From a virus (taxonomy: Duplodnaviria > Caudoviricetes), in IMG/VR virus record IMGVR_UViG_3300017785_001977, positions 1-24,851 of that record: 24,851 nucleotides of DNA. One strand, written 5' to 3'. The notes under the pieces were generated by a model, which did not search any database, was not told where the DNA came from, and worked only from the letters and a program-made list of their open reading frames with translations. The first letter of the stretch is position 1; each line of letters begins with the position of its first letter. Made by a program: the position numbers and the translations under genes. Of this stretch, positions 2,925-24,420 are shown one piece after another.

Positions 2925-3728
2925 TTAGTCTTTCATGTAAGTTGCTTTTTCCTGTGATGCCCAAGGCACCTGTCCTGAAATGTTTTCGATTGTCATGTCC
3001 AGCTTAGGACAATGCACAAACTTAGGAGCGTTAACCCTACGATCAACGCAACGAGTGCAAGCGTGAACGTAGTCAACGTTATGCGCCTTCTCTGCCTTCT
3101 CTCTCCACTTGCCATTCGCTTTTTCGTAACGGTAGGAATCATATGGAACGTCATAGCGTTCGATGTATTCCCACACGTCATCATGAGTCCAGTCTCGAAG
3201 AGGAAACATAGCAGTTGCTTGATTCCACATAACCCTTGAGTCAATACGAGTTCCAACGTCACCACCGACGATTGTGTCTGTATCACAGCCCTTGTGACCT
3301 ATCCACAATGCATCAAATGCAGGAGCCTCCAGCATCAACTGCTTTGGTCGTTTAATGATGTCTAGTGAGCAGGTAAACGAGCAGCCTTGAATAGGCTCCA
3401 CAATGCCAGTAGGACACGTTAGAATGTTTGAGTTGATCTGATACACGTTCTGCACTTCAAACTCATCACCTGTCTGCTGGTAAGAAGACTCTTGAGGATG
3501 CCAATTGTAAGCTAACAAATTCCATCGCTTAATGATCTCATCAGCGAAGACATACTTCCTTGGTTCCCATGGTTCACGAAAGAAGATCACAGGCATAGAG
3601 ATGCCCATGCCTTTCATGATGTGAAGAAGTGCCATCGAATCCTTGCCACTACTCCAACAAATCATCCCTTTAGGAAACGACTTGATGCCACTGGCAATAA
3701 GCTTCTTTGTAGTTTCTAGTTTAGTCAT
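2925..3728 (-). CDS. PAPS reductase family (PP-loop adenine nucleotide alpha-hydrolase) protein
   Basis: PP-loop ICWSSGKDSMALL, WIGHKGCD, FPLRDWTHDDVWEYI and CTRC are family motifs. The C-terminal ECGLH of true CysH is absent. Confidence 0.85.
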   Translation of the reverse strand: MTKLETTKKLIASGIKSFPKGMICWSSGKDSMALLHIMKGMGISMPVIFFREPWEPRKYVFADEIIKRWNLLAYNWHPQESSYQQTGDEFEVQNVYQINSNILTCPTGIVEPIQGCSFTCSLDIIKRPKQLMLEAPAFDALWIGHKGCDTDTIVGGDVGTRIDSRVMWNQATAMFPLRDWTHDDVWEYIERYDVPYDSYRYEKANGKWREKAEKAHNVDYVHACTRCVDRRVNAPKFVHCPKLDMTIENISGQVPWASQEKATYMKD

Positions 3729-16969: not shown

Positions 16970-18619
16970 TTAATAAGATCCTATTTCGCCTTGAGGTTGG
17001 AAGCTTTGACTGTTTTGATGGGTCGGATTCATCACCGCTAGATAGCGCAGAACATCGACAGGATCTTTAGTTGCTCCCTTGTCTCCGTCTGCACCTGTCC
17101 ACTCTCGGAGTGAGTAAATGATGTTTTTGCACGTTTCACTAACATAAAGGTTAGGCTCATTTAAGAGCGCAAGCAAGGGTTCGTCCTTATCCCACGCTAA
17201 CCAGTTGTTAATGATGCTCACTCCTTCCTCGATTCGGAGTCCTGCGGCAGGTGTGAACCACATCGGGTCTGGATCTTCGGCTAAGAGGTCAGTCAGACTA
17301 GTGCCACCGTCCTTACCAATCGCCTGAGTGCCACCAGCTCTAGGGTCAATAAACCTGTCAGCGATCTCTTCCTTACCTTCAAGCTCTTCGATGAGTGCTT
17401 TGTAGTCGTTAATCCCTCGACCAGCACCGTTTCGTTGTGCTGCCCCTGCTTTTCCGTCAGGTTTATCGCTTGGGATTGCCCATTCACCCAGATCGATGCT
17501 AGGCCACTCTCTGTAAATGAACTTTCTACCGTGTTCGTCCACTCGGAGCCACAACATGAACCAGTTACGAGCACCAGCAGGATCCATTGCCATGTAATTC
17601 GTGCCCTTTTCTGGGATCTGATCGTCAGGAATCACGTTCCAATTGCCAAATTTGGGGAATTGGGAGCCTGAAAGACTCTCTGCCCATCCATAAGCACGAA
17701 TCTTGACCTCGTAATTGGTGCGTCCATGTAACGCTCTTTTGATTTCGCTGAACGGTGAATAGACGTTAAGCTCCGAATGGAACCAGATAGCCCTGTTACT
17801 CGGATTATGGCAGGTAGCTTGGAATGGCATGGTGCCACGTTCACCACCAGGAACGTTGATTGAGTCCTTGAGCAGGGAAGCTGGGAGCCATTTAGTGATC
17901 ATCGCACCTGCAATGTATTCTTTCACCACCGAAGTATAACCACTGATCGGCGTGAAGGTCAGAATCATCTTACCTCGTCTCGTTGCAGTTCGGTAACGTA
18001 GCGTTTTGATCCAGTCGGCTGTGATTTCTTCGTCAATCCAGATCAAATCTACCTCACCACCTTCGATGACCTTGATGTCTTGAGACTGGTTGAGAAACCA
18101 GCACTGGCTTTTGTTGGGAAGGACAAAGGTATTGTCTGAGAATCCGTTTTTTTGCGTGAAAGCAACATTGGTGATCTTCGTCTTGCGTGCCGTTTTATAT
18201 TCTGCTGGCAGGTATTTGTAGACTACAGGTTGCTGCATCTGCACGCTACTCATGTTAGTCGTATGGATGCACCACACTCGCTTGCCTGGGTTCTGGCTAA
18301 GGTATTGAGCCACTCGTTTTGCAGCGTATTCAGTCTTAGACGCACGGTTTCCGCCAAAGATCATGAGTTCTGAGATAGCTGGATCTGACAGCAGGCTGTC
18401 GGCAATCTTCCAGTGATCGGGTTCGTAGCCGTGACGATAAGGGTCCATCGTCTCTGCCATGATCTTGTCCTCACGCAGTTGCAGAAGCTCACAAGCACGG
18501 TCGATGCCCTTGTTCTTGATGATGTTGGCTATCTGCTCCGCACTGGGAGCGACCATGATAGGATGAGGCGTAGGCGTATATTTGCCTAGCGTCTCCTTGG
18601 ATACTTCGTTGATAAACAT
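16970..18619 (-). CDS. terL: Terminase large subunit
   Basis: Walker A GGNRASKT, Walker B LIWIDEE, coupling motif TFTP, RNase H-like nuclease AMDP and DPVDVLRY. Confidence 0.92.
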   Translation of the reverse strand: MFINEVSKETLGKYTPTPHPIMVAPSAEQIANIIKNKGIDRACELLQLREDKIMAETMDPYRHGYEPDHWKIADSLLSDPAISELMIFGGNRASKTEYAAKRVAQYLSQNPGKRVWCIHTTNMSSVQMQQPVVYKYLPAEYKTARKTKITNVAFTQKNGFSDNTFVLPNKSQCWFLNQSQDIKVIEGGEVDLIWIDEEITADWIKTLRYRTATRRGKMILTFTPISGYTSVVKEYIAGAMITKWLPASLLKDSINVPGGERGTMPFQATCHNPSNRAIWFHSELNVYSPFSEIKRALHGRTNYEVKIRAYGWAESLSGSQFPKFGNWNVIPDDQIPEKGTNYMAMDPAGARNWFMLWLRVDEHGRKFIYREWPSIDLGEWAIPSDKPDGKAGAAQRNGAGRGINDYKALIEELEGKEEIADRFIDPRAGGTQAIGKDGGTSLTDLLAEDPDPMWFTPAAGLRIEEGVSIINNWLAWDKDEPLLALLNEPNLYVSETCKNIIYSLREWTGADGDKGATKDPVDVLRYLAVMNPTHQNSQSFQPQGEIGSY

Positions 18620-18621
18620 GG

Positions 18622-18837
18622 TTACTCACTTCCGATGGGAAGTTGATTCATCCGTGTATAGATCGAATCAAGCACACCTTTCCGTTGGTCCTTGCTCCAC
18701 CGCCAGATGTTGCCTCCATCAACGAATCGGAGCGATCCGTGCAAGCTATCAAGGAGCACCATTAGCTCCCACTGGTTAATCATTGGAAGCGAACAAGGCG
18801 ATGATCCCAATTCGTCAAGCATTTTGGAGTCTTTCAT
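18622..18837 (-). CDS. Hypothetical protein (71 aa)
   Basis: Co-oriented ORF ending 2 nt before terL. Confidence 0.55.
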   Translation of the reverse strand: MKDSKMLDELGSSPCSLPMINQWELMVLLDSLHGSLRFVDGGNIWRWSKDQRKGVLDSIYTRMNQLPIGSE

Positions 18838-18857
18838 AAGTTATATCAGACTTAAAT

Positions 18858-19040
18858 CTAGTTAAGATCTGTTTCATCAGACCTAACACACGCACAGTTT
18901 AACTTTGCAAGCAGTTTCTCAGCAAAGTCTTGATCTAGTCCGAAGTCGCTGATGTAGTCGAGGAACTCAGGAAAGAAGTCTTCGATAAACAGAGCCATGG
19001 CATCCAGTTCTTTGATGTTAAATCTAAAGGAGTCTTTCAT
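18858..19040 (-). CDS. Small acidic hypothetical protein (60 aa)
   Basis: D/E/F-rich ORF directly after a promoter-like element. Confidence 0.55.
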   Translation of the reverse strand: MKDSFRFNIKELDAMALFIEDFFPEFLDYISDFGLDQDFAEKLLAKLNCACVRSDETDLN

Positions 19041-19047
19041 TTTTGAG

Positions 19048-19075
19048 AACGTAAGTCACGAAAAAGCACTGGCAA
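19048..19075 (-). promoter_or_regulatory. Putative promoter for the packaging/virion operon
   Basis: TTGCCA-N16-TACGTT; the -10 box lies 7 nt from the ATG at 19040, suggesting a near-leaderless transcript. Confidence 0.4.
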
Positions 19076-19099
19076 GAGTGAGATTGCCTCTTGTTTCAG

Positions 19100-19127
19100 T
19101 TGACTAGTCCCTGTATTATTGCATCAT
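19100..19127 (+). promoter_or_regulatory. Putative promoter for the plus-strand ncRNA
   Basis: TTGACT-N16-CATCAT (alternative: TTGTTT-N17-TATTAT at 19091-19119). The predicted start at about 19134 coincides with the first stem. Confidence 0.5.
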
Positions 19128-19133
19128 AGATAA

Positions 19134-19545
19134 TGGTTTGCTCTGCGGGATCGGAGTGATCTGATCTACTTGCAAACCAGCAACTAGCTCGACTTTGATC
19201 CCGCGAAGTCGGGCTTTTTGTTTATTGGGCATCTCTGCCTAAAATAACCTTTAGTGTCACTGCGTTGTGCTCCATGGGAAGGTGTTGAGAATTCGGTGGA
19301 CGATGGATAGCAGATCAGTCGTCCTAAAGTCGCAGGTGAAAGCCTGGGCTGCCGTTGAATCGTTTGATCCGTGTTTACTGAGACAGCCGAGCGGAGAGAT
19401 TCAACAGTGCGAAGGTGTTCCCGATTCCTGACGAATAAGAATTCCAAAGCTTGCAGTATCCCAGCAATGGGACTGCTATGCTCAGATGAAACCGCTCAAG
19501 CCCTCTGAATAAGTAGTTTACTGACCAGTAAATGTTGCAAATACA
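19134..19545 (+). ncRNA. Large structured non-coding RNA of unknown class
   Basis: Many helices, GNRA loops GTGA, GAAA and GCAA, and G-U pairs valid only on the plus strand. No credible ORF; occupies the largest intergenic gap. Confidence 0.65.
19186..19223 (+). terminator. Intrinsic terminator/attenuator within the ncRNA leader
   Basis: AGCTCGACTTTG-ATCCCG-CGAAGTCGGGCT hairpin followed by TTTTGTTT. Confidence 0.7.
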
Positions 19546-19556
19546 GTGCAGGATTT

Positions 19557-20276
19557 TCAACAAAACAAGTCAAGTTGCGAAGTCTCTCGCTTGATCCTTT
19601 CCTTGGCAGCTTCAAAGTAGTCTGCATCAATCTCGCAAGCGGTTAAATGCATTCCAGCATAGTGACAGGCAATAGCGTGCGATCCTGAGCCTAGGTGAGT
19701 ATCTAGGATACGTTGACCTGCTGTAGCGTAGTTCTTGAGAAGCCACTTGTAGAGGGCAACTGGCTTTTGAGTTGGGTGGATTTTTGTGTCATACCCAGCA
19801 CTGAAATGGTGCATAGCAAATCTACGGCAAGAACTATCAAACGATGTCCATGCTAACTCAAAATCAGCCATGTTGTTTGTGCCATTCATCTTGTCCCATG
19901 ACAAAAAACACCGTGTTGAGTTCAAGTGATCAAGAAAGTAATTGCCTCCCCAAATGATCTGATTTTTTGATACTCTGCGAAGTTCAGCAAAGTATTGTCC
20001 ATTTGGTGTTGCACTATCCCATTCTCCGCCAGTAATGCCATTCATGCCACGCATCATTGAAGACTTACTTTCGGTTGTCTTTTTAAATTGAGACACGATC
20101 CCAATCCCATAAGGAGGATCAACAATAGCCAAATCAAAGTGTTTATCTGGAAACTCCTTCATCACGTCCATGCAGTCAGCTAGACGTAGATCTAAGGTTC
20201 CAGCATGAGGAATTACCGCCAGTGACTCCTTCACCGGAGTAGGCTCGTGTTCAAGGTTGAATGAATCGGGAGTCAT
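19557..20276 (-). CDS. Orphan DNA methyltransferase, N6-adenine/N4-cytosine family (beta class)
   Basis: DLAIVDPPY catalytic motif precedes HPTQKPV and ILDTHLGSGS SAM-binding motif. No adjacent restriction nuclease. Confidence 0.92.
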   Translation of the reverse strand: MTPDSFNLEHEPTPVKESLAVIPHAGTLDLRLADCMDVMKEFPDKHFDLAIVDPPYGIGIVSQFKKTTESKSSMMRGMNGITGGEWDSATPNGQYFAELRRVSKNQIIWGGNYFLDHLNSTRCFLSWDKMNGTNNMADFELAWTSFDSSCRRFAMHHFSAGYDTKIHPTQKPVALYKWLLKNYATAGQRILDTHLGSGSHAIACHYAGMHLTACEIDADYFEAAKERIKRETSQLDLFC

Positions 20277-20301
20277 AAATTATGTTCTTTCAACAGTTTT
20301 G

Positions 20302-20359
20302 AACTGTCAACGATTCCTTGACGGTTGGAATACCATATTGCTAACGTCAGCAAAATGGT
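20302..20359. repeat. Two adjacent operator-like palindromes
   Basis: AACTGTCAA-CGATTCC-TTGACGGTT (20302-20326) and ACCATATTGCTAAC|GTCAGCAAAATGGT (20332-20359, 12 of 14 positions symmetric). Confidence 0.75.
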
Positions 20360-20383
20360 CTGCACATGAGCAGTATATAAAAA

Positions 20384-20695
20384 TTATAATGCCAAACGTT
20401 TCCTCTCATAAACTGGCTTATTGTGAGTTATTCGAAAAACTCGAACAGCCGATTTTGAGCACTTGAGAATGAGAGCAATATCAAGGTTAGAGTTCTGTTT
20501 CCATGCTCTGTCACTGATCTGCGGTAACTTCTCTTTGAGTGCAGATCGTTTAGCCTTGTCAGGTGCTCTAGGAAGACCTCTCTCACGTCGAGCACTCCTC
20601 ACCGTCTTGTCACAGCATCCTAGCTGAGTTGCAATCGCCTCGTTCGTCTGGTTCCAGTCTGTAATGGAGCTGAAGTCTACTTTGTTGTATTTCAT
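20384..20695 (-). CDS. DNA-binding protein with two HTH-like repeats
   Basis: W.QTNEAIATQLGCCDKTVRSARRERG and WKQNSNLDIALILKCSKSAVRVFRITH. Confidence 0.65.
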   Translation of the reverse strand: MKYNKVDFSSITDWNQTNEAIATQLGCCDKTVRSARRERGLPRAPDKAKRSALKEKLPQISDRAWKQNSNLDIALILKCSKSAVRVFRITHNKPVYERKRLAL

Positions 20696-22417: not shown

Positions 22418-23674
22418 TTAGTATTCCGATTGTTCTCTGAACTTATAGAACTGACCAAGGAAGTCCAATTGCTTCTCCCAAAACCTTTCACCCGTCCTGT
22501 TCTTGATGCATTTGAGAAGTCTCTTCGTGTCATCGTCATCCACCTTCTCAATGTAAACGACATGATCAGCATCCTGTCCAATGGCTCTAGATTCTCTCAA
22601 CTGCCCGAAGTCGTTGAGTTGGCTAGCAGTCAGGATAACCTTGCCACACTTCACAGCAGTCCTCTTCAATCGTCTGGAGATGCTAGCAATGATCTCTTCC
22701 CTAGATCCTTTCTTATTCCCATCATCCTCCATGAGTTGGAGATAATCAACCATAGCAACATCACAGTCAGACTGCTCGATGTCTGCTAGGATCTCACTGG
22801 CTGAGGCTCCATTCACATCAACAATATCGCACTTTGCGACACCTAGCTTCTTCACTGCATCCATGAGTGCTGCTTGCTCTGCTCTGGTCATCATCCCTTT
22901 CCAGACCGATTGATTATCAAGGTTGCCCTGTGAGCATAACAAACGATATGCTTGTTCCTGTTGAGTCATCTCAAGCGGATAGATGCGAACCTTCTTCCCA
23001 AGAGCAACAGCAGACTCCAAGAAGTTCTGCATCAAGACTGACTTACCATCTCCAGGTTTTCCAGCTATGACCCAGACTCTACCACCTTGCATTCCGCCAG
23101 TTTTGGAGTCGATGAACGGAAACCCAGTCGAGATGCCTGATAAGGCTCCACCTGCTTGCATTCGCTTTTCAATGTCCTCAAGTAGGGTGATTGTAAGCTC
23201 TCCAATCGGTTTGGAGGATAGAGGCTTACCTTGGATCTTGCTGGCAGTCTCAATCACTCGTTCCGCTTCGCTTAATGCTGCTGGTATCTCGTTGATAGGC
23301 ATGTTCAGTGCCTGTTCTGAGAGGTTGAGAGCATCCTTGTAAGCTTGGACTCGTTGCACTAGTTCATAGCGTTGCCTGAGTTCGGAGACTGCTACAGAGA
23401 CATTTTGTCCAGTCACTGGACTTGTGAAATACTCTGTCAGCGTTGCTGCTCCACCGACTTCGTCTAGCTTACCTTGGTAGCGTAGTCGAGCAGTCATCGT
23501 GACGAGGTCTGGAGTCTCATCACGTCCGATTGTGTTGACCAGCTCGATGAAGATCGGTCGAATCATCGGAGAGAACATATCAGCAGTGATTGCGTGGATG
23601 TGCTTACCAAGGAACTGAGGGAATTGCAGGAAGATACTGATCAACAGTTCTTCGTTGGCTTTCTTGAGGATCAT
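22418..23674 (-). CDS. dnaB: Replicative DNA helicase, DnaB family
   Basis: Walker A AGKPGDGKS, PLEM, VDYLQL, SQLN and LRESRAIGQDAD; N-terminal LDEVGGAA domain. Confidence 0.95.
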   Translation of the reverse strand: MILKKANEELLISIFLQFPQFLGKHIHAITADMFSPMIRPIFIELVNTIGRDETPDLVTMTARLRYQGKLDEVGGAATLTEYFTSPVTGQNVSVAVSELRQRYELVQRVQAYKDALNLSEQALNMPINEIPAALSEAERVIETASKIQGKPLSSKPIGELTITLLEDIEKRMQAGGALSGISTGFPFIDSKTGGMQGGRVWVIAGKPGDGKSVLMQNFLESAVALGKKVRIYPLEMTQQEQAYRLLCSQGNLDNQSVWKGMMTRAEQAALMDAVKKLGVAKCDIVDVNGASASEILADIEQSDCDVAMVDYLQLMEDDGNKKGSREEIIASISRRLKRTAVKCGKVILTASQLNDFGQLRESRAIGQDADHVVYIEKVDDDDTKRLLKCIKNRTGERFWEKQLDFLGQFYKFREQSEY

Positions 23675-24420
23675 AAACGGTCGTATTGGCTGAGTTGTTT
23701 AGGTTTAATGAAGTTCTCTGCATTCGACTTTGATGCTGGCTTCTCATCCTCGTAGCGTCTTGAGTTGAGGTAGGTCGCTGGAAAAGGAATGTATTTCACT
23801 CCTTCTTTCGTCCAGTCTTCTGACTTACTCTGCCAGTTTAAAGCGGTAAGAACTGTTTGAAGATCTGGTTTAATCTTAGCCCAGGCTCTCTCAGCATCTG
23901 CTTTGGCAGTCTTTCTTGGGTAGGCAGTCCAGAACTCATTGAAGCCTGCTGGTATATGTTTATTTGGATTAGAAGTTATAGTAGGAGTTAGAGTAAGAGT
24001 CAGAGAGCTTATCTCTGGGTTATCTGTTTGGTTATCTTCTGAACATAACCTTGGGTTATCTTTTTGGTTATCATCTTGGTTATCTGTTTGGTAATATGGG
24101 TTTGATTTACCCTTCACAAAGTTAGGGTTTCCACCCTTCTTTCCATTCTGAACACATGTAGTCTTGTATTTGTTCAGATTATTACGAACTGATTCCAATT
24201 TGGCATTCTTACCATCAGGAAACTTGCGTAACACATCAAGCGTTACATTTGACCCTGCTATTCGTGTAAGTTTAGGAATGTCCTCAACTGGAATTGATTC
24301 TCGGCTCCACTGATAGCAAAGCAGACGAATGTAGGTTCCTACCTCTTCAGCGGACAGATCACAGGTGCCTCCAATGAAGTCGTCAGGGTAGAATTGAAAA
24401 GCTGGAGCTTTGGGTTTCAT
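23671..24420 (-). CDS. Phage replication initiator (YdaU/DUF1376-like N-terminus)
   Basis: PAFQFYPDDF...LSAEEVGTYIRLLCYQW, NGKKGG and C-terminal FNEFWTAYPRK...PFPATYLN..RYED; contains iterons; coupled to dnaB. Confidence 0.85.
   Translation of the reverse strand: MKPKAPAFQFYPDDFIGGTCDLSAEEVGTYIRLLCYQWSRESIPVEDIPKLTRIAGSNVTLDVLRKFPDGKNAKLESVRNNLNKYKTTCVQNGKKGGNPNFVKGKSNPYYQTDNQDDNQKDNPRLCSEDNQTDNPEISSLTLTLTPTITSNPNKHIPAGFNEFWTAYPRKTAKADAERAWAKIKPDLQTVLTALNWQSKSEDWTKEGVKYIPFPATYLNSRRYEDEKPASKSNAENFIKPKQLSQYDRL
24006..24096. repeat. Iteron array, putative replication origin
   Basis: Exact GGTTATC at 24018, 24030, 24054, 24066 and 24078 (12-bp phase), with an inverted ATAACC in the skipped slot. 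Confidence 0.75.

Follow-up and report, generated by a model that had tools for sequence, protein, structure and literature searches.

A strongly covarying plus-strand RNA behind a putative hypervariable attenuator in a phage genome: a candidate RNA-primed second origin

What could a gene-free stretch of about half a kilobase do in a phage genome, and does it encode a functional RNA? The window analyzed here, which is the whole stretch of 24,851 nt, contains such a gap at 19041-19556. At 516 bp it is the largest between minus-strand ORFs, in agreement with a preliminary description, made from the letters alone, that had put it at about 500 bp. Capsid, scaffold, DnaB, and initiator are encoded by this phage according to the PHROGs search; the product of the large terminase gene, which served as the query for gathering relatives, matched only an unnamed PHROGs family. 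Iteron-like GGTTATC repeats lie inside the initiator gene (24005-24100), and gene and iterons together probably form the phage's own protein-started origin. The hosts are likely Verrucomicrobiota, the phylum named in the record titles of five of eight terminase relatives in GTDB. A PAPS reductase-like gene was observed amid the virion genes (window 2925-3728), and an 87-aa minus-strand ORF has no PHROG match. The features are collected in Table 1.

Table 1. Features of the cassette, its surroundings, and related RNAs (window positions unless a locus is named)
Feature	Position	Strand	Basis
Promoter-like site, sigma-70-type (TTGACT, 16 nt, CATCAT)	19100..19127	+	promoter scan
Module A, predicted two-state switch	19130..19223	+	fold vs shuffles, terminator scan, alternative fold
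Module A P1	19134-41/19172-79	+	predicted fold
Module A inner hairpin	19148-67	+	predicted fold
Intrinsic terminator	19186-19223	+	terminator scan
Specificity pair (with terminator 5' arm and loop)	19145-57 vs 19192-204	+	complementarity, duplex energies
Middle module, two hairpins	19224..19288	+	covariation 19248-51/19279-82; other modules instead in relatives
Core 5' domain: P2, P3, P4, P5, three pseudoknots	19289..19405	+	covariation
Core 3' domain: R1 19433-39, hairpin 19453-76, R2 19507-13	19406..19514	+	alignment, repeat tests
DNA palindrome outside the cassette	19517..19532	no strand	still present at the empty site of L011
Large terminase subunit (putative)	16970..18619	-	inferred: Walker A-like motif; portal, scaffold, capsid neighbours
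DNA methyltransferase, variable neighbour	19557..20276	-	PHROGs search
DnaB-like helicase	22418..23674	-	PHROGs search
Replication initiator	23671..24420	-	PHROGs search
Extended EGFOA RNAs	L369:747-993, L366, L374:8650-9040, L375:14980-15310, L377		

All local helices listed in the preliminary description lie where it had placed them. The plus strand folds better than its shuffled versions (z -2.9, 0 of 100 shuffles as good), and the minus strand gave z -1.0 with 16 of 100 shuffles as good. Homologues were collected by pattern scans of viral and metagenome contigs, and 42 distinct cores were aligned, with 61-93% identity to the core of the window and 22 effective sequences at 92%; L066 was excluded from this alignment (A1) because of a long insertion. 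The core spans 225 nt, and across its 40 pairs in 42 cores 98.3% of the 1680 pair cells are canonical, compared with 28-39% in slid controls. Changes on both sides were found in 24 of the 40 pairs. Four of the helices proposed earlier are among those that covary (19298-304/19318-24, 19333-46, 19355-61/19398-404, and 19368-72/19391-95), and the plus strand is the RNA strand, as had been argued, for G-U cells number 115 against 4 A-C cells in the same 1680. A protein-coding core was rejected; stops interrupt all but 7 of 252 frames across it, and core lengths fall in all three frames.

Three pseudoknots in the 5' domain of the core extend the earlier list of helices. The first, 19293-97/19386-90, is C-G in 34, U-A in 7, and U-G in 1 of the 42 cores, and the second, 19329-31/19382-84, is U-A in 25 and G-C in 17 of them. 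The third, 19310-13/19349-52, involves the P2 loop, forms 3-6 bp in 42 of 42 cores, and shows changes such as GCAA/UUGC. Altogether 44 columns are invariant across the 42 sequences; further pseudoknot candidates (UCA/UGA, GGA/UCC, UCCY/GGGA, and GUUUGA/UCAAGC) fall in invariant columns and hence carry no covariation signal. Window columns 19349 and 19473 were observed to share one letter (C/C in 30, T/T in 12), and the two GCAG and two CTGC words may permit a swap of partners.

Other parts of the proposed fold did not withstand the comparison. The long-range pairs GGGAA/TTCCC (19276-80/19418-22) and GAATTC/GAATTC (19289-94/19439-44) do not belong to the helices that 90% or more of the cores retain, a test whose alignment does not include 19276-80; 19279-82 covaries with 19248-51 in place of the supposed long-range partner. 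GTGA is not a conserved GNRA loop, as the loop in most homologues has 5 nt (for instance UGAUC). The helix TTTACTG/CAGTAAA (19517-32) is flanking DNA rather than part of the RNA, since it is retained in L011, which is without the entire cassette. The sequence GTTTACTGA was seen both in the conserved loop of the core (window 19373-19381) and in the flanking DNA palindrome (19516-19524), which occurs in up to three copies in relatives; it is possibly a protein-binding or pac site.

The stretch had been viewed as one multi-domain phage ncRNA of an unnamed class. An undescribed, strongly covarying plus-strand RNA is indeed present; however, the whole is a modular, probably regulated cassette and more than one RNA, because it is divided by an intrinsic terminator that was absent from the earlier list. 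The promoter-like element noticed ahead of the first stem was recovered as a sigma-70-type site followed by P1. Such sites lie upstream of 26 of 44 switch homologues, compared with 3.4% of 2000 random windows. Module A is 94 nt in length, comprises P1, the inner hairpin, and the terminator, and folds with z -6.9 (0 of 200 shuffles). Its alternative fold is 7 kcal/mol weaker than the main one (-36.0 vs -43.4 kcal/mol). In 41 switch variants, a set obtained after removal of five reverse-strand false matches, the specificity-pair duplex has a mean energy of -19.6 kcal/mol for cognate and -11.3 kcal/mol for non-cognate combinations (0 of 10000 permutations), and these variants fall into 23 cross-pairing classes. 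The class differs even between near-identical phages and reassorts with the terminal RNA. These foldings and energies suggest that module A is an attenuator. A second candidate attenuator family, with P1 GCTTCG/CGAAG and, by eye, the same pairing with the terminator loop, was observed in L041, L066, and L356.

The cassette occupies a slot with exchangeable content. Among 32 loci with a related terminase, 16 have at least 96% identity and also cover the upstream region; the slot of these close relatives holds the RNA of the window (B1) in eight, B2 in three, B3 in two, and nothing in three (L004, L006, and L011). In L011, 19089 is joined directly to 19514. Near-identical phages thus contain other RNAs in the same slot, two of which end with the direct-repeat design described below for the core. 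The position between early and packaging modules that had been noted for the window is correct there but not general, for in G159 and G160, whose head module differs, the cassette has the scaffold/protease gene on one side and the capsid region on the other and again runs against the genes. In general, a cassette starts with a promoter, switch A, and a middle module; carrier stems with tRNA-like inserts may come next, then the terminal RNA, and in some cases a small ORF. Hairpin-and-T-run terminators stand close behind some cores (L042 and L045), and small ORFs, unrelated to one another, come directly after about half of the cores. The carriers that were checked have DnaB; a tyrosine integrase was found in 0 of 15 carrier records, several of them incomplete, a serine resolvase in 0 of 5, HTH_3 in 1 of 5, and ParA in 0 of 5 complete records.

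Several side observations concern the variety of this slot. At least three more terminal RNA types stand behind module A in L269, L214, and L313. In L014, L029, L030, and L137, small ORFs that appear HNH-like and PD-(D/E)xK-like by eye, with weak or no Pfam matches, directly follow the terminal RNA. Tandem carrier stems of 17-18 bp occur in L312, L319, L330, L335 (=L118), L337, L313, and L326; their hypervariable inserts of 80-130 nt have a tRNA-like start and end, and four of them score 29-34 bits as tRNA. Such arrays are possibly decoys.

The most distinctive feature of the 3' domain is a 7-nt direct repeat. GAATAAG is present at R1 and again at R2, where the core ends, and the two copies vary together among homologues (GAATAAG, GGAAG, AGAATGA, GAATGAG, GAAAC, GGAAC, GGAA). 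With 12 distinct R1 types, R1 and R2 match at 5.7 of 7 nt inside lineages vs 4.3 between lineages, a concert reached in 0 of 20000 permutations and seen in several separate branches. The two copies lie 64 to 76 nt apart, a spacing that follows no frame. No lineage-specific RNA partner for R1/R2 was found in the core, and none appears among the top covarying pairs, module A and the middle module included.

The same design was found outside the family of the window. A 3'-domain pattern that was derived from B3 and a fourth slot RNA, and that allowed any letters in the repeat, identified 20 viral loci with 14 distinct 3' domains. In 11 of these 14, each of the two anchor motifs is followed by one and the same word of 4-8 nt, with eight different words in all; the chance of a repeat match is 1 in 256 per domain, and the three domains without a repeat are one near-identical group. 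The B1 core itself reached at best 9 bits with this EGFOA-type 3' domain, and 4 of 42 cores scored above zero (210 shuffles, at most 0.6). Its link to that domain is therefore weak by sequence and rests on the design and the common slot.

In L369, the 3' domain lies downstream of an RNA of the Rfam family EGFOA (64.9 bits), and in L366 downstream of one at 34.4 bits, under the 37.7 cut-off. The L369 RNA matches nine Paenibacillaceae plasmids. Five of them were examined: one has the match between repA and parA, another has it two genes before parA, and three have the same anchor-repeat-hairpin-repeat end. A repA is present in one examined plasmid, and the others may have a Rep as well, the PLSDB gene table being incomplete. 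EGFOA RNAs were observed to run 3' past the Rfam model into a domain of anchor, word X, G-tract hairpin, anchor, and X again, within plasmid replication and partition regions. Other long non-coding stretches, of no assigned class, in unrelated phages (L355, L361, and L364) end with the same paired-repeat domain.

In ColE1 RNA II, one G run base-pairs with the template strand of another that lies farther downstream. Its 3' repeats are G6 at L376 429-434 and 676-681 and AAACGCCTG at 600-608 and 696-704. The B2 RNA, which occurs in 10 viral contigs (such as L018:4330-4557 and L002:4075-4330), ends with a G6-N-G6/7 tract that is invariant and is followed by GAGAGAGAG; the pyrimidine stretch that pairs with the tract is variable (7 sequences). 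The tract may be likened to the mitochondrial CSB II priming tract. In the origin region of phage RedRock (L380:4199-4239), TACGGC was noticed twice, 34 nt apart, around a C6/G6 hairpin, a post hoc sighting missed by the profile scan.

In searches for known families, Rfam gave no gathering match in the window, only chance matches up to E 10, and its ribozyme and intron models had no match there. ARAGORN found neither tRNA nor tmRNA in the window; the preliminary description had seen no RNase P, tmRNA, SRP, or group I/II intron hallmark. The EGFOA covariance model (RF02955) did not match the window and reached gathering level in L369 only. By-eye comparison with known consensus features led to rejection of group I, T-box, HDV-like, IS200/605, and bridge-RNA likenesses for their wrong topology. 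The RNA of the window had no match in plasmids or named phages, and the GTDB pattern scan for it was empty. In 156 genomes (5 + 151), the RNA model had two weak matches, both in apparent coding DNA, and revealed no host RNA similar to the core. The GTDB pattern scan, the 156 genomes, and the plasmid search gave neither an integrated nor a plasmid copy of B1. The model matched none of the other slot RNAs (63 sources), and B2 and B3 gave chance matches only against plasmids. No description of the element was found in the literature; the 10,006 models of Fremin 2023 and the PMC10690425 and PMC5737381 supplements lay outside this comparison and may hold parts of it. Modules A and B1 match no Rfam family; even if the cassette is no origin, it contains a new triple-pseudoknot RNA family with a putative hypervariable attenuator.

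Expression of the cassette may be indicated by one low-depth contig. In the assembled contigs of one metatranscriptome run, 189 nt agree fully with 19210-19398 (depth 2.3), with neither strand nor ends defined, and two further contigs of this run lie on the scaffold gene. Four more runs yielded short pieces from relatives; several runs are probably DNA.

Of the four functions suggested earlier, the best fit is a primer similar to ColE1 RNA II; ribozyme, scaffold, and sponge are less likely, as nothing specific speaks for them. ColE1 RNA II primes replication via a lasting hybrid, and the trigger of this hybrid is termed speculative in the available portion of PMC5043065. The two systems share a protein-free transcription unit, a folded RNA, 3' direct repeats, and, as far as the consulted sections of PMC5043065 and PMC3035462 describe, small-RNA control with variable loops. 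The direct repeat which in ColE1 links upstream RNA to the primer 3' end has its counterpart in R1/R2. There is, however, no sequence likeness; no Rfam or plasmid match indicates RNA I/RNA II homology, and the unit of the window is about 385 nt, compared with 550 in ColE1. Its putative regulator is the 5' piece of its own transcript that ends at the terminator, instead of an opposite-strand RNA, and its repeat is a variable word of 4-8 nt instead of a fixed G run. A consensus scan of 18500-20500 found no minus-strand promoter-like site, and so no ColE1-style antisense RNA I promoter.

Similar considerations apply to other replicons. The MRB replicons of Vibrionaceae (pB1067) have a Rep-less origin of about 500 bp in which a few variable small-RNA bases set incompatibility and keep plasmids compatible (PMC3035462, in part). 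Their RNA I is, however, antisense from the opposite strand, whereas switch and target of the window lie on one strand; a 68-nt RNA I fully complementary to RNA II is absent from the window, which has no sequence match to these replicons and no plasmid match. RNA-based prophage origins are described in mycobacteriophages, where the non-RepA parABS phages (RedRock, Et2Brutus, and others) have a gene-free stretch of about 600 bp amid virion genes and replicate without integration (PMC7157519, in the sections available). Unlike in these, no ParA was found in the five complete carrier records, and the RedRock stretch scored zero with the A, core, and 3'-domain profiles. ARRPOF (255 nt, four pseudoknots) is part of a pKH9 replicon that does not depend on Rep, as stated in parts of PMC5737381 and PMC12990946. 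EGFOA RNAs in L369, L366, and Paenibacillaceae plasmids close with the same repeat design, but the RNA of the window has no Rfam match even at E 10. In the main text of the EGFOA preprint (10.64898/2026.07.01.735769), as available, 'replication' and 'plasmid' are absent.

Same-transcript complementarity is also present in module A, where a role in readthrough is predicted. In phage P1, the small C4 RNA and its target lie on one transcript and govern readthrough. An equivalent arrangement exists in P4 CI RNA and Gifsy-1 IsrK (PMC4825925, in part). Unlike C4, CI, and IsrK, with which no Rfam match is shared, the predicted target in the window is the terminator itself and the controlled product would be mainly RNA.

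The reading favored here, which is given an even chance, is an RNA-primed, Rep-independent second origin that serves a plasmid-like phage state and has its copy number set by the attenuator. Established so far are the order of the parts, their folds and covariation, the variability of the specificity pair, and the concerted change of the repeat. Host RNA polymerase would initiate near 19130; pairing of 19145-57 with 19192-204 would prevent the terminator, so that the core is transcribed. The folded core would then expose R1 for pairing with the template strand of R2, its identical copy in the DNA, this pairing would seed a lasting RNA-DNA hybrid, and the 3' end of the hybrid would prime host Pol I, as in ColE1 RNA II. 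As copy number rises, terminated 94-nt RNAs would accumulate and, in nascent transcripts of their own class, block the switch, which would provide both copy control and incompatibility between co-infecting phages. This negative feedback is a kinetic argument rather than a result, and the available part of the IsrK report indicates that the opposite sign of short-RNA control is possible (PMC4825925).

Evidence bears on this origin from both directions. An RNA word identical to a DNA word at the transcript end, with its letters free to vary, is predicted by ColE1-like template pairing, and thus the concert of R1 and R2, with no RNA partner found, counts in favor. So do the 3'-domain repeat in 11 of 14 domains, with EGFOA and plasmid replication regions among its settings; the direct repeats of ColE1 RNA II and the G-tract end of B2; and the hypervariable, reassorting specificity, which resembles MRB incompatibility through loop changes. 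The lack of integrase and resolvase and the single HTH_3 record agree with a plasmid-like state. On the other hand, DnaB and an initiator with iterons mean that no RNA primer is needed for lytic growth; the cassette is optional, being missing from 3 of 16 close relatives; and ParA is missing from all five complete records. The weak link of B1 to the EGFOA-type 3' domain the lack of a plasmid, named-phage, or credible GTDB match, and the repA of one EGFOA plasmid also count against it, and when an inverted repeat changes jointly and fast, the change can be neutral. GC skew does not help the origin either: in five genomes it does not switch at the site, an uninformative outcome.

A primer likewise does not explain the small ORFs after the core and the tRNA-like inserts, which better fit an operon of cargo or decoys. 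In such an early accessory RNA operon, the switch would meter a series of RNAs and small proteins as cargo, probably trans-acting anti-defence decoys, and the core would be one cargo. Free recombination of modules, dispensability of the cassette, and the long carrier stems with tandem hypervariable inserts upstream of the core (L312, L335, and others) are in keeping with this explanation; it is nevertheless considered unlikely, as it accounts neither for the concerted R1/R2 nor for the same 3' design in plasmid replication regions, and none of the 156 genomes searched has a core-like host RNA. Some defence reverse transcriptases use direct repeats flanking a template. A similar layout here, together with three pseudoknots and so many invariant columns, could indicate a catalytic or template RNA that cuts or joins RNA at R1 and R2, or that serves a host reverse transcriptase jumping between the repeats. 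This appears improbable, given no internal guide for R1/R2, no Rfam ribozyme match, a repeat spacing that keeps no frame, and RVT_1 in 0 of 4 records with a related 3' domain.

The orientation of the cassette, which opposes the flanking genes in the genomes mapped, raises the idea of a transcription device. Readthrough antisense RNA, possibly made processive by the core, would silence lytic genes of a repressor-less phage under P4 CI/IsrK-like control, IsrK being a short terminated RNA that acts on its own long form (PMC4825925, in the part consulted). The insertion site varies among phages, however, terminators follow closely after some cores, and R1/R2 would be unexplained, so this idea is rated as distinctly improbable. 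An element that acts as single-stranded DNA, for instance a lagging-strand origin, would fit the statement of Weinberg 2017, in the sections available, that plasmid motifs of such size could act as ssDNA (PMC5737381); the promoter and terminator conserved alongside, the G-U pairs and GNRA loops, and the metatranscriptome contig all point to RNA, and the ssDNA alternative is very improbable.

To our knowledge, RNA-primed replicons are known from few families. RNA-primed origins as such are not new; control by a terminated 5' piece together with a variable guide word would be. A broader proposal, possible but doubtful, is that of a replicon family in which the changeable guide word of a folded RNA finds its own DNA origin, the terminated 5' piece sets copy number and class, integrase-less and Par-less freshwater phages persist as plasmids, and EGFOA RNAs are primers. 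If the cassette is an origin, EGFOA, whose structure is already solved, would gain a function, and vectors for Verrucomicrobiota could be developed. The natural series of R1/R2 variants makes the hybrid-trigger step of the ColE1 type testable. Integrase-less phages are usually scored as lytic; if the second origin is real, a freshwater group of them would have a hidden plasmid state with many compatibility classes.
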